A stretch of DNA of 64,000 nt, taken from a virus. Position 1 is the stretch's first letter. The number at the start of each line of letters is the position of its first letter. The position numbers and the translations under genes are program-made. Below are positions 21,242 to 50,799 of this stretch, in pieces. The notes below the pieces were generated by a model. It did no database searches. It saw only the letters and a list, made by a program, of their open reading frames with translations, and was not told the DNA's origin. Location of the stretch: positions 1-64,000 of IMG/VR virus record IMGVR_UViG_3300032288_002811, one strand, 5' to 3'.

Positions 21242-23098
21242 TTAACAGTAAAATACTGTTTGGAAAGCTCCTAGTGTGAAAGATCCAGTGCCACTGGATG
21301 CTACATTAGTCATAATTTGTGTTGGGCTACTTCTTACTGTACTTGCAGCTGCCAGTTGACAACCATATAGTCCATCTCCCCAAGCATACAATACTCCTCC
21401 AGTAGTTACAGCCATAGCATGTGATGAACCAGCATCAACTTTTGAAAAAGTTGTTCCTGGCATAAGTTGTACTGGACTACTTCTATTGACTGTAGCTGTG
21501 TTTCCTCCATGATATGGTGCTAGACCCCAACCAAAAAGTCTTCCATTAATATCAATTGCAAATCCGGCATAACCGGCTGCTGCAATTTGACTATAACTAC
21601 TACCTGTCGGATAAAGCAAAGCAGCATTACTTTTGTTAACAGTAAGATTATCACCTAGATTTCCATAACCATTATAACCCATTGAAAATACTCTACCTGT
21701 ATTTTGTAACCAAGTTGTATGTGTAGCTCCACCAACCATTGCTACATAACTAGACGATACTAATACGGGAGTACTTGCATTTGCTATTGTTCCACTTCCT
21801 GTTTGACCATAAAGATTGTATCCCCAAGCATAAGATGCGCCAGCTGTTGTAATAGCATATGTAGTGCCTGCTGAACCTCTATTCAGATTAGTATATTGAC
21901 ATGCAGAACCAGTAAGATTACCTGCAATAATTTGTGGGTATATTCTGGTACCAGAATTGACACCTGTTCCACCGCCTGTTGAACCGTTAGCGTTATTTCC
22001 CCAAGTGTAACATAACAAATTACTATAACCTAATGCTATTGTATATTGATTGTATGCATCAGCTCCATAGTATAAATTACTAGGTGCGCCGGCAGTAGTT
22101 AATTGTACAGGACTACTTCGAGCACCGGCACCAGCGCTGGTATTATTACCCCACTGAGCGGCCGTGTTTACGCCCCATATCCATAGTGTAGCGTCCGATT
22201 TAAGTCCGTTGGTTACGACATTACCATAATAATTGTATGCCCATTGACCAAAAGTTGATATAGGTCCAACTAAATTTGCTCTATTTGTACCAGAAGTAAA
22301 TACTGCTGTTGATTTATTGACTGTTGTGTTGTCACCTAATTGGCCACCTGTATTTAATCCAAAAGCAACAGTAAAACGTTCATATAATGTTTGTGTGGCC
22401 GAAACACCAACTTGTGTTCCAAAGTTATCAGGTGAAACACCTACTGTAAAAGTCCGTTCATTACCACCAGAATCATAATTTGTTGTTGTTAAACTGATTG
22501 TACCAGTACCTGTAACAGAAGTAGTAAAAGAACCTGAACTAGTAGTAAAATGTGAAGATGATGTTCCACCATGATTAATTCGCCAATATAATAATTGACT
22601 ATTATAACCTGTACATGCAACTGCAAGGTTGAAAGTACCTAAGCCCGCTTGGCCACCTCTAAGACAAATGTTTGACTGCCCACGTATGGCCGCTGACCTA
22701 GTAACCGTTGCTGTTACAGTTGTAGAAGTATCATTAACTGTTACTGAAGCACTGGTTGCAATAACTGTTCCTGATATTGAATCTGTTCTAATACTAACTG
22801 TAAATGTTTCTGCACCTTCAGTTGTAAAATCTGCAATTGGTGTAATAGAAAAAGTACCTGAAGAAGCTGAAACTGTAATTGTACCTGAAGTTGCAGAAAA
22901 ATCTCCAGAAGATGTTGTTACATGATTGATTGTCCAATATAATGTACCACTAGCAAAATTCGTTGTTGTTATACCAAATGATCCAGCAGAACCTTCGTTG
23001 ATTGAAGATGGTGTAGTATTAAATGTGGCTGATGCACTTAATACACCACCTGCTGCACCAAAACCTAACGATTGACCTATACTAGAATAACGAGGCAT
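21242..23098 (-). CDS. Putative fibre-tip protein: Calx-beta/Ig-like domains plus RCC1-like beta-propeller
   Basis: SINEGS...LYWTI...ADFTTEGAETFTVSI (Calx-beta-like, with a second degenerate copy); repeated (A)WGxNxxGQLGD...RSSPVQ blades. Confidence 0.8.
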   Translation of the reverse strand: MPRYSSIGQSLGFGAAGGVLSASATFNTTPSSINEGSAGSFGITTTNFASGTLYWTINHVTTSSGDFSATSGTITVSASSGTFSITPIADFTTEGAETFTVSIRTDSISGTVIATSASVTVNDTSTTVTATVTRSAAIRGQSNICLRGGQAGLGTFNLAVACTGYNSQLLYWRINHGGTSSSHFTTSSGSFTTSVTGTGTISLTTTNYDSGGNERTFTVGVSPDNFGTQVGVSATQTLYERFTVAFGLNTGGQLGDNTTVNKSTAVFTSGTNRANLVGPISTFGQWAYNYYGNVVTNGLKSDATLWIWGVNTAAQWGNNTSAGAGARSSPVQLTTAGAPSNLYYGADAYNQYTIALGYSNLLCYTWGNNANGSTGGGTGVNSGTRIYPQIIAGNLTGSACQYTNLNRGSAGTTYAITTAGASYAWGYNLYGQTGSGTIANASTPVLVSSSYVAMVGGATHTTWLQNTGRVFSMGYNGYGNLGDNLTVNKSNAALLYPTGSSYSQIAAAGYAGFAIDINGRLFGWGLAPYHGGNTATVNRSSPVQLMPGTTFSKVDAGSSHAMAVTTGGVLYAWGDGLYGCQLAAASTVRSSPTQIMTNVASSGTGSFTLGAFQTVFYC

Positions 23099-23101
23099 AT
23101 T

Positions 23102-26100
23102 TTATCCGTATGAGTTTAATTGGCCAAGAATTGTAAATGTACCGGAAACATTAATCAATGTAAATGTTATCACATCAACTCTATTTGCGACACCAACACC
23201 CGTTGTAGCATTTAACCATTTAATAGTAGGTGTTGAACCATTAACTGATATACTATTAACAATATATGGTGTTGCGCCTTGTGCAATTATACAAACAAAT
23301 GTTGATACACGACTTGAAGTATTATCTAAACCAGTAATTGTTGCGGTAATGTTACCACCAACGCCTGTATGATAAAATGTGGCACCTGTAGAGTAATCAT
23401 ATGTTGTTGCACCACTAGAACTTGATTTGGATTGAAAGTTTTCTTGTGATTGTTGGAAAACTGTGTTACTACTAAAGGTTACTAGACCAGATACTGTACC
23501 ACCAGCTTTTGGTAGTGCATTGTTAGCAGTTGTAAATGCAGAGTTGGCATATGAACCTGCACCTGTTGCATTTGTGCCAGCGGTATTAGCAATACCAAAC
23601 GCTGCGTTAGCATATGAACCAGCAGACAATGCATTAGTTGCAGCAGTATTGGCTTGTGTGAAAGCACCATTAGCGTAACCAGCTGCAGCAGTTACATTAT
23701 TAGCAGTTGAGAATGCGGCATTAGCATATGAACCAGCACTTGTTCCTTTGGCATCTGCTGTATTGGCTGCCGTGAAAGCACCGTTGGCATATGTACCAGC
23801 TGATACTGCCTTAGCATCAGCTGTGGAAGCATTAGTAGCTGCGGTATTTGATTGAGAGAAACTGGAATTGGCATATGATGCTGCAGAATTAGCTACGGCA
23901 AATCCAGAGTTGGCATATGAACTTGCTGAAGCAGATGAAGCAGCATTAGCTGCTGTGAATGCACCGTTAGCATACGATGCAGCTGAGTTAGCAACATAAC
24001 TTGGAGTATTGGCCGATAGGAAAGCAGAGTTAGCATATGAACTAGCAGCAGTTACGTTATTGGCTTGAGTGAATGCACCGTTGGCATACAACGCAGCTGA
24101 GTTGGCAACATTACTCGGAGTGTTAGCTGTTAAGAATGCTGAGTTGGCATATGAACTAGCAGCAGTTATGTTATTAGCAATACCAAATGCTGAGTTAGCA
24201 TATACACCAGCAGAATTGGCAGAAATGAAGGCACCATTTGCATATGAACTTGCTGAAGCAGATGACGCTGCATTAGCAGCTGTAAAAGCACCGTTAGCAT
24301 ATACACCAGCAGATGTTGCGGTATTGGCTTGTGTGAAGGCACCGTTAGCATACGATGCAGCTGAGTTGGCAGTATAACTTGGAGTATTAGCCTGTAAGAA
24401 GGCAGAGTTAGCATATGAACTTGCTGAAGCAGATGAAGCTGCATTAGCTGCTGCAAAGGCACCGTTAGCATACGATGCAGCTGAGTTGGCAGTATAACTT
24501 GGAGTATTAGCAGTTAAGAATGCTGAGTTGGCATATGAACTTGCTGAAGCAGATGAAGCTGCATTAGCTGCTGCAAAGGCACCGTTAGCATATGAACCTG
24601 CACCTACTGCTTTAGAGTCTGCCGTATTAGCTGCAATGAAAGCACCATTAGCATATATTGCAGCAGGAACAACACTCTCAAAAGCACTATTTGCAACATT
24701 AAAAGCGGATGTTGCATTCAAAGCAGCAGTATTGGCAACTGTAAATGCTGAATTGGCATATGATCCAGATGTTACTGCCTTAGCATCCGCTGTTGCAGCA
24801 TTAGTTGTTGCGGTATTGGCTTGTGTGAAGGCACCATTCGCATACACACCAGCAGACGTTGCAGTATTAGCTTGAGTGAAGGCACCGTTAGCATATATGG
24901 CTGCCGAGTTAGCAACATAACTTGGAGTATTGGCCGCTAGGAATGCAGAGTTGGCATAAACACCTGCCGAAGATGCACCACTTGCTGAGTTAGCAGCCGC
25001 AAAGGCCGCATTTGCATATGAACTAGAAGAATTAGCAACAGTAAAAGCACCGTTAGCATATACACCTGCCGAAGCTGCACCACTTGCTGAGTTAGCAGCC
25101 GCAAATGCCGAGTTGGCATAAGAACCAGCAGTTACTGCCTTAGCATCGGCCGTGTTAGCACCAGCGAATGCTGAGTTGGCATAAACACCTGCTGGTGTTG
25201 CTGTGTTAGCCTGTAAGAAGGCCGCATTTGCATATGAACCAGCAGAGTTTGCACCAGCATATGCATTGATTAAGTCACTAGACCATCCTGTATCATAGTT
25301 TGTTGAACTGTTCTTAACTAATACTTGACCTGTAGTACCACCAGAAGCAACACCATTACCAGTTGCGCCTGTGGTACCAGTTGCACCAGTTGGTCCACGT
25401 GGACCTTGGCCACCAGTTACTGTTTGTTCAAGTGCAAAATAATCTATCTTGGATGCATGTCCTGTATTACCAGCATTGCTGTGATATAAACGAGCTTGAA
25501 CTGCACCAGCAGAAATATAAGATGTATAACCTAATACTTCAAGTGCATATTGTGCATAACCATTGGCACCAGAATATGAACCAATATTGTCCCATGAAGA
25601 TGTGGAATTGTTATAAATTTGGAAATAAATTATATGACCAGATGCTGGTGTGTAATCAATATTTGCAACGATTCGGTTGAATGATGTTATACCACTAAAT
25701 GTAAATGTAATAATCCACGCAGGACCACTACCATTACCATCAGTTATTTGATATGAATTGCCATCATTCAATGTTTGTGTATCGGTTACAGAACCAGAAA
25801 CATAAACACCATTAGTTAATGACAAACTGTCCGCTGTATATGAAGTTGTTGCTGGAGCTTCAATATCTGCAAAACTCAATACACCCGTACCATCAGTAAT
25901 TAAATATTGACCTGGTGCACCACCATAAATGTGTAAGTTGTCAACTACACCAAGTGCAACATTGGCTCCAACAGAATTCACATTACCAGAAATCTTAAAT
26001 GCATTGTTTGATGTGAAGTATTCTAAGTTGCTTGTGTTACTTAAATAACCATTATTGTTGGCAAAAATTATAGTATTTGCTTTCCAGCCACTTACTTGTG

Positions 26101-50444: not shown

Positions 50445-50448
50445 TTTA

Positions 50449-50799
50449 TTACCTTGTTACACGTGGTAAAACATCAACAACACCTTCCAAAACTCTAACA
50501 ACTGTATTTGCTTGTCCAGGTGCACCTTCATAAGACACTATAGTGTCATATACGTATCGACCTGTAGAAATATTAGCTGTTTGTCTGGAATCCAATGATA
50601 ATGTTATTGTGGATGTTCCTGTGTTTATTGATGTTACGAATGTTGCAGTTGCATTCGCAGAATAATAAGATTTTCTGATTTGACTAAAACAAGACGCATT
50701 TGAGAGGTCGTAATTATCTCCATAAACGTCATCCAACGTCAACGAAATGTTGAAGGTCGTGCCTTGTTCTAAAAATAAATTCTGGTAACCTGCGGCCAT
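50449..50799 (-). CDS. 116 aa Ig-like virion structural/adaptor protein
   Basis: NLFLEQGTTF...YDL...SQIRKSY...ITLSL...T..I..GRYVYD...RVLEG...V.P.VTR, a small beta-sandwich pattern familiar from T4-like cyanophage virion genes. Confidence 0.75.
   Translation of the reverse strand: MAAGYQNLFLEQGTTFNISLTLDDVYGDNYDLSNASCFSQIRKSYYSANATATFVTSINTGTSTITLSLDSRQTANISTGRYVYDTIVSYEGAPGQANTVVRVLEGVVDVLPRVTR

Follow-up and report, generated by a model that had tools for sequence, protein, structure and literature searches.

A ten-gene block of an uncultivated T4-like myovirus encodes fibre proteins with matched terminal connectors that may dock end to end

The 64,000-nucleotide DNA analysed here (the window; positions 1 to 64,000 of the 77,390-base IMG/VR virus record IMGVR_UViG_3300032288_002811) belongs to an uncultivated T4-like freshwater or aquatic myovirus. 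Between positions 21242 and 50799 it carries a block of ten genes, P0001 to P0010, in which the end of each protein and the start of the next-encoded one form a distinctive pair of terminal connectors. All nine junction types of the block recur as adjacent pairs in other phage contigs, and in the class that the window uses three times the two partners covary in subtype. This sequence evidence makes it probable that the encoded neighbours dock end to end in a segmented fibre system. An earlier note on the window had read the block as a collinear chain whose products join, in gene order, into one filament. Its observations were borne out by the translations: the ten open reading frames (ORFs), with the end and start motifs it quoted, all lie on the minus strand where it had placed them, and all three genes ending in a short class A tail (a plug) are followed by a gene with a gp37-N-like start (a socket). 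The connector observation itself is confirmed, and the pattern extends well beyond the window into IMG/VR loci. The interpretation is partly supported: adjacency is conserved and connectors covary, whereas serial, unbranched joining into a single filament would go further than these data. The ten proteins, with search expect values (E) for the sockets, are as follows.

P0001, 50449..50799, minus strand: 116 residues; p132-like immunoglobulin (Ig)-type anchor or collar protein.
P0002, 50226..50444, minus strand: 72 residues; N-terminal base module and class A plug (VVVDVGFF, stop).
P0003, 47809..50226, minus strand: 805 residues; ILRS-type gp37-N-like socket (VQILRS..P..L.DG.LAYS; E 4.7e-28), heptad coil, beta 'knob', heptad coil and class A plug (NLISGGTF, stop).
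P0004, 45373..47772, minus strand: 799 residues; socket (IQLFYS..GEVAIN..GKLF; E 1.2e-12), short coil and 530-residue C-terminal domain (phrog_8578).
P0005, 44815..45372, minus strand: 185 residues; N-domain (start MAVSDSSKVDLLYKK) pairing with the P0004 C-domain, and class A plug (NVINGGTF, stop).
P0006, 33931..44763, minus strand: 3610 residues; socket (IQLKWS..P.SL..GEAAYS..KLF; E 9.9e-31), about 2,680 heptad residues interrupted by knobs, and class B plug (YVDCGELT, stop).
P0007, 29353..33900, minus strand: 1515 residues; Mtd_N start, about 1,150 heptad residues with one knob, and C-terminal GDxW..LYxY..W hairpin, rich in tryptophan (GDQWW..YEYIYDG..WIDIS).
P0008, 27668..29320, minus strand: 550 residues; FPxSP hairpin start (MAFPTSP..NGKTYIY..W), short coil and 300-residue C-domain, which contains ..YKIYISG.. 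and ends ..YKIYISGFATTTSGSI.
P0009, 23102..27664, minus strand: 1520 residues; LNDNL start (MAITLNDNL..DSRYGPY), knob, about 900 heptad residues around a globular insert, and 130-residue C-domain (end ..ILGQLNSYG).
P0010, 21242..23098, minus strand: 618 residues; short N-peptide (MPRYSSIGQSLGFG), two repeated beta domains and RCC1-type propeller; the block's last structural gene.

In class A, a tail ending in G-G-x-F or D-x-G-x-F is followed by a gp37-N-like start. T4 gp37 begins IQFKRS..RP..L.EGELAINL.D..IF and T4 gp36 ends ..IKDSVQDFGYY, and trimeric gp36 binds the N-terminal region of gp37 (T4 assembly review, PMC3004832). The earlier note had remarked on the likeness of the window's sockets to the gp37 N-terminus. 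A profile of 34 sockets, compared with residues 1-140 of T4 gp37, aligned with residues 6-50 over 42 columns (hhalign probability 95.7%, E 8.5e-9), and on this profile match the three sockets are homologous to the gp37 N-terminus. On the plug side, the likeness of gp36 to P0002 is confined to about the last five residues (DFGYY versus DVGFF or GGTF).

About 200 related IMG/VR loci (cited below by L numbers) were gathered using P0005, P0002, P0001, the P0008 C-domain, P0010 and the P0009 C-domain as queries, and ORFs were called in all of them. A plug-ended gene was directly followed by a socket gene 84 times in 151 non-redundant loci, versus 29.6 +/- 3.7 times (maximum 43) when gene order was permuted 2000 times inside the loci. 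This was the check that the earlier note had named beforehand as decisive, and connector types were not shuffled with respect to their neighbours. Counted as distinct adjacent pairs, socket genes came next after 48 of 70 plug-ended genes, compared with 11 of 161 other genes (Fisher p 5e-22). All 141 socket matches were N-terminal, and neither an internal socket nor an internal plug+socket fusion was found in 205 sources (204 loci and the window). Plug and socket subtypes covary: the ILRS-type sockets, 15 of 15 distinct ones together with the window's own, were preceded by plugs without the double glycine (D-A/N/Q/V-G-x-F), and 61 of 69 non-ILRS sockets were preceded by G-G-x-F plugs. The switch of plug subtype was found inside a single P0002-like family. 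Plugs are borne by at least six unrelated protein bodies, one of them a 65-residue protein made of socket and plug only. These natural 65-residue proteins combine an ILRS-type socket with a GGxF plug and occur in L082-L084, L086 and L098-L100, near locus positions 4228-4425 or 10588-10785; flanked by a P0002-like gene and a fibre gene with a socket, they resemble a minimal 'adaptor' segment.

The remaining end and start pairs quoted in the earlier note were also found in place, including the Mtd_N start of P0007 and the RCC1 protein. P0007 matched Pfam Mtd_N (PF18454) with 41 bits against a gathering score of 26.3 (E 1.8e-10) and the Mtd structures 1yu0-1yu4 with E of about 1e-6; the P0006 socket reached 17.7 bits in the same Pfam family, under the 26.3 cut-off. 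P0010 matched RCC1 (69.9 bits, cut-off 21.7, E 2.7e-19), RCC1_2 (41.6 bits, cut-off 22, E 9.6e-11) and WD40_RLD (E 7.9e-35). In class B, a D-Y/C-G-x-L/V-T/S tail was followed by an Mtd_N start in all 5 distinct cases observed, and L102 and L138 add to these. The P0004 C-domain preceded the P0005 N-domain in all 51 distinct pairs, and the rule held equally when read from the N-domain back to the C-domain. Two successive copies of this pair are found across gp087, gp088 and gp089 of the cultured Caulobacter phage CcrColossus (L206), a giant siphovirus. The P0008 C-domain was followed by an LNDNL..RYGP start in 25 distinct pairs and in two divergent ones below the search threshold, with one apparent exception at a contig edge; these loci range down to 30% identity and lie in quite different phage contexts. 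In L152, L165 and L166, proteins with both halves of this pair stand in series. The P0009 C-domain preceded a gene starting M.R....G...G in five of five cases, the window included, and the cargo behind this N-peptide varies (RCC1, glycine-rich proteins, or triplets of small proteins). A hairpin end was followed by an FPxSP start in all three hairpin-ended genes, the window's among them. Small proteins of about 106-114 residues recur directly after fibre genes that have no C-terminal connector (L092, L099, L104, L121, L138 and L087-L097). They have two types of start, one like M..SYK.LGQ....IYTVP and one like MPAIPLNTFKTTT, and may be tip-associated or assembly proteins.

At the upstream end of the block, P0001 matched phrog_3304, 'L-shaped tail fiber protein assembly' (E 1.3e-14), and its family profile matched the T5 p132 chains 7qg9_R (E 2.6e-4) and 8hqz_Q (E 1.6e-4) over about 85 of 110 positions, with modest significance. 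T5 p132 has an Ig-type fold and anchors the first approximately 50 residues of the fibre protein pb1 (PMC10038345). Judged by these matches, P0001 is related to the T5 collar protein p132, so that what the earlier note had called an Ig-like anchor has a relative with a demonstrated role in anchoring the N-terminus of a fibre. Directly after the P0001-like gene, the related loci always have either a gene for a P0002-like protein of 65-100 residues or one for a long collagen-like fibre that starts with the P0002 module (L106, L107, L116, L117 and L123). The P0005 N-domain likewise heads fibres of 250 to more than 1180 residues in other phages. These natural fusions put a covalent link where the window has a joint. 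Shorter chains are also found. L142 has an anchor, a P0002-like protein, a 707-residue protein with an ILRS socket and a P0008-type C-domain, and a 1512-residue P0009-like protein; L138 has a similar chain, which a class B tail then extends to an Mtd_N fibre. In most relatives, which have no 805-residue segment, the P0002-like and P0004-like genes are direct neighbours; in the place of P0006, the relatives' gene encodes about 490-630 residues. The connector grammar thus seems to have been preserved through the insertion, loss or expansion of segments, and the relatives' shorter chains have the same ends.

These observations suggest a model in which the C-terminal connector of each protein would dock to the N-terminal connector of the next-encoded protein, so that gene order would equal assembly order. 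At least six connector pairs appear to be in use. The p132-like anchor would hold the N-module of the 72-residue protein. The second pair, used three times, would join a hydrophobic-D/N-G-G-x-F tail to a gp37-N-like domain in the same kind of joint as T4 gp36-gp37. The third would join a D-C/Y-G-x-L-T tail to an Mtd_N domain, and the fourth the tryptophan-rich hairpin to the FPxSP hairpin. A fifth type would comprise two domain-to-domain 'knees', one between the 799-residue protein's C-domain and the 185-residue protein's N-domain and the other between the 550-residue protein's C-domain and the LNDNL start. In the sixth, the 130-residue C-domain would receive the N-peptide of an exchangeable tip, here the RCC1 propeller. 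Both fibre length and tip would then be evolvable, because segments with two connectors could be gained or lost without breaking the chain.

The shafts between the connectors consist of heptad repeats. YAN.AF-type repeats are spaced mainly by 14, 21 or 28 residues, and 61-100% of the motif spacings in each protein are divisible by 7. We counted 699 heptads with asparagine at every seventh residue, in runs of up to 17 heptads, with alanine in 92% of the preceding positions. This asparagine-heptad count corresponds to 4,893 residues and a broader repeat count to 5,321; the repeat residues number about 284, 140, 2681, 1147, 153 and 916 in P0003, P0004, P0006, P0007, P0008 and P0009, respectively. 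Proline recurs in NTPS heptads without breaking the periodicity (repeat regions within 23102-50226, minus strand). Trimeric autotransporter stalks have ion-binding asparagine core layers, and by analogy the asparagines of the block may form similar core layers. AlphaFold2, run on P0003 residues 165-440 with a 53-sequence alignment, modelled the repeats as helices of 61 and 27 residues and the knob with a beta core of predicted local distance difference test score (pLDDT) above 90; this knob recurs in the 805-, 3610-, 1515- and 1520-residue proteins. The shafts are therefore modelled as helical heptad coils, presumably trimeric. A beta-solenoid reading of the repeats, which would give a roughly six-fold shorter fibre, was rejected, as AlphaFold2 gives long helices.

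The standard coiled-coil rise is 0.148 nm per residue. If all repeats were in series, the predicted contour would be about 0.79 micrometre (5,321 residues), or about 0.72 micrometre by the strict count, and P0006 alone would span about 0.4 micrometre. These figures are arithmetic on predicted helices, to which knobs and end domains would add. The earlier note had estimated 5,500-6,000 heptad residues and 0.8-0.9 micrometre; the heptad nature of the repeats held and its arithmetic for a fully serial chain was reproduced, and the residue count, and with it the length, came out slightly lower. In its fullest form, the proposal would be that aquatic T4-like phages use at least six orthogonal connector pairs as a docking code and that the window joins nine segments in series, from a p132-like collar to an RCC1 tip, with an asparagine layer in each heptad. 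We put this forward tentatively; a single unbranched nine-segment filament of about 0.8 micrometre is conceivable and at the same time the more doubtful outcome.

For P0005, AlphaFold2 gave a mean pLDDT of 80 and a predicted template modelling score (pTM) of 0.75, with a beta-sandwich core at residues 45-175 (pLDDT about 90) and low confidence in the first 45 and last 10 residues. The low-confidence ends fit a protein with two partner-dependent ends. Foldseek found no match at E 0.001 or better for the P0003 knob model and no match for the P0005 model, whose best VIA match (Z 4.6) was a generic beta sandwich. Sequence searches of solved structures with P0003, the socket profile, the 799-residue protein's C-domain and the 550-residue protein returned nothing useful. 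A near-identity DNA search with 6 kilobases (kb) against isolated phages gave no match, and tblastn with the socket of the 3610-residue protein found one uncultured marine virus and nothing else; neither search gave a cultured close relative of known morphology. Relatives of the RCC1 protein were matched through the repeated beta domains only and provided no usable context.

All genes in the window are on the minus strand, and PHROG matches place the ten-gene block in a T4-like structural module. Upstream of it are a baseplate wedge gene, a 2097-residue VrlC-like protein, a 73-residue ORF and a 926-residue fibre; downstream are three transferase-type genes and then homologues of gp13, gp14, gp15, terminase, sheath, tube and portal, the gp13-gp20 homologues forming the downstream flank. 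In pelagimyophages and cyanomyophages, the region from the VrlC gene to the neck genes is a hypervariable 'host recognition cluster' (PMC7029224), and the block is in that slot. A T4-type late-promoter motif, TATAAATA, is found at four places in the window, each time between genes and on the minus strand, and at none within the 29.6-kb block; two of the copies flank it.

50833..50840, minus strand: TATAAATA, about 30 nucleotides upstream of P0001, the first gene of the block.
21224..21231, minus strand: the next TATAAATA, directly past the RCC1 gene and ahead of the transferase genes.

Intergenic gaps within the block are -1 to 51 nucleotides, and neighbouring genes overlap or nearly touch at the junctions (TAATG, TAAATG, gaps of 3-4 nucleotides), the P0002 stop, for example, overlapping the P0003 start (TAATG). 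Since the motif brackets the block, before P0001 and after the RCC1 gene, the ten genes look like one late transcription unit of 29.6 kb. The 926-residue upstream fibre was considered as a member of the chain and rejected: it has a Peptidase_S74 self-cleaving chaperone C-end and lies ahead of the late-promoter motif, and is a separate, self-contained fibre. Several neighbouring genes may be mentioned here. The 73-residue ORF (53702-53923, minus strand) has the VrlC-like gene on one side and the S74 fibre gene on the other, a place at which relatives keep an ORF of 69-76 residues with a similar start. A 494-residue protein outside the block (61665-63149, minus strand), upstream of a gp6-like gene, has block-type repeats and weak tail-fibre PHROG matches, and neither socket nor plug. 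Between the block and gp13, positions 17319-21217 (minus strand) encode a methyltransferase domain, a 585-residue protein and Glyco_transf_25, three transferase-type genes typical of the host recognition cluster (PMC7029224).

The place of such a chain on the virion bears on its function. Instead of a baseplate fibre, it could be an appendage of the neck or collar that works like a giant version of the T4 fibritin whiskers; this concerns location only, and we consider it a less probable yet serious alternative. The block occupies the T4 wac slot, with the baseplate and fibre genes on one side and gp13 on the other, and in the distant relatives L114, L124, L129 and L135 a P0001-like gene is immediately upstream of a neck gene. 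A solved relative of P0001 forms a ring-shaped collar, although T5 p132 is at the tail tip and not at the neck. The shafts, like fibritin, are segmented helical coiled coils, yet Pfam and PHROG matches gave no fibritin or foldon homology. A neck-fibre system is described for myophage A-1(L) (PMC10966104), whereas gp37-N and Mtd_N domains belong to receptor-binding tail fibres and the cluster itself is called a host recognition cluster in the literature (PMC7029224).

Several observations weigh against serial docking of each protein to its encoded neighbour. The P0002 family shows no homology to the body of gp36 (hhalign probability 0.15%), and the record is a metagenomic fragment with an estimated completeness of 46%. 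For 22 of the 70 plug-ended genes, the next gene has no class A socket: six have class B tails followed by an Mtd_N start, and the other 16 precede a small helical protein, so that plug pairing is not always with the next neighbour. In CcrColossus, gp089 ends TIDGGTF and is followed by a 141-residue protein without a recognisable socket. Where the small helical protein intervenes, two plugs may face one socket. The plugs of P0003 and P0005 are nearly identical (ISGGTF and INGGTF), which leaves the choice between the two downstream sockets unexplained and makes off-order joining conceivable. The hairpin-FPxSP joint between P0007 and P0008 is the weakest of all, as FPxSP starts were preceded by unrelated ends in five of nine other loci. 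The small helical protein (114-240 residues) is absent from the window; it occurs between a plug-ended fibre gene and a socket gene in L002-L017, L042-L045, L082, L092, L099, L102 and L110, usually has its own GGxF plug, and has a start resembling MSVEFSNAYQEVLLENL or MENDKYINYYI. Its role may be that of a chaperone, a further type of connector or a point of branching.

These points also bear on the possibility that the connectors dock as proposed while the products form several shorter or branched fibres. The break or branch would be at the C-domains of the 799- and 550-residue proteins or at the hairpin joint, where the FPxSP N-terminus may dock elsewhere, and similar plugs could compete for sockets, as the near identity of two plugs in the window and the relatives with a plug-ended fibre, a plug-ended small protein and then one socket gene would allow. 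CBA120, G7C and Klebsiella jumbo phages have branched receptor-binding complexes whose assembly relies on conserved docking domains at the N-terminus. The 799-, 550- and 1520-residue proteins end in sizeable globular domains, which are often fibre tips; however, the globular C-domains are always followed by a matching N-domain (51 of 51, and 25 plus 2), proteins with both halves of a pair stand in series (L152 and CcrColossus gp088), and every gene of the block before the RCC1 protein has a C-terminal connector. We regard several shorter or branched fibres as rather unlikely. It is most improbable that the end and start pairs are gene-boundary cassettes kept together by recombination, as conserved linkers through which fibre modules are swapped, and by translational coupling, with adjacency reflecting linkage and not binding: the junctions are short or overlapping, T-even fibre loci recombine at conserved motifs, related loci share ancestry, so that the adjacency and covariation counts are inflated and are not independent events, and linked inheritance of such cassettes would yield similar numbers, but the class A pair has its T4 homologue in a physically established joint, the pairs are conserved as protein sequence in loci of only 30-50% identity whose intergenic gaps run from -1 to 60 nucleotides, sockets are never internal, natural fusions replace the joint by a covalent link, and the low-confidence, apparently unfolded tails of the P0005 model fit partner-dependent folding.

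End-to-end docking of encoded neighbours thus remains the reading that we prefer. Phage fibres determine which cells are met and infected, and this reading concerns the way in which abundant aquatic myoviruses may assemble the products of their large, hypervariable fibre clusters. If the end-to-start docking rule is true, fibre architecture would be predictable from metagenomic sequence alone, the exchange of segments and tips without loss of assembly would be explained, and the connectors would offer short, orthogonal, natural parts from which fibres or protein rods could be designed. At about 0.8 micrometre, a filament would be several times as long as the particle. With a fibre of nearly a micrometre, a particle in dilute water would have a much larger capture radius, which bears on encounter-rate models of phage and host dynamics.

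Compared with known systems, the block would be a T4-type multi-protein fibre that is unusual in its segment number, connector types, helical asparagine-heptad shafts and predicted length. The T4 long tail fibre gp34-gp35-gp36-gp37 likewise consists of trimeric segments joined end to end with gene order equal to fibre order, and the resemblance extends to the homology with gp37 residues 6-50, the DFGYY tail of gp36 and knee-like domain joints. T4, however, has four segments, whereas the block would have nine with at least six connector types; T4 fibres are mostly beta-structured rods (PMC3004832), whereas the block has helical heptad shafts; T4 attaches gp34 to gp9, whereas the putative anchor here is p132-like; and the P0002 family as a whole is not a gp36 homologue. 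In T5, a small Ig-type protein, p132, is also encoded beside the fibre gene and grips the pb1 fibre over approximately its first 50 residues. In T5, a siphovirus, the collar encircles the tail-tube ring p140, whereas the particle here is a contractile T4-like one, and the module at the anchor is a separate 72-residue protein. The N-terminal domain of Mtd of the Bordetella phage BPP-1 starts the 1515-residue protein, but here it heads a coiled-coil shaft without a C-type lectin tip, and its gene is always preceded by a gene with a D-Y/C-G tail. The host recognition cluster of PMC7029224 matches the block in position (from the VrlC-like gene to the neck genes), in hypervariability and in its fibre genes and glycosyltransferases; that account lists Mtd, YadA and collagen domains, and not matched terminal connectors or collinear assembly. 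T4 fibritin (wac), which shares the genomic slot of the block, and trimeric autotransporter stalks are likewise segmented helical coiled coils with polar core positions; no sequence homology to them was found, and the shafts of the block differ in being up to seven times longer in one protein, with asparagine at every seventh residue in runs of up to 17 heptads.

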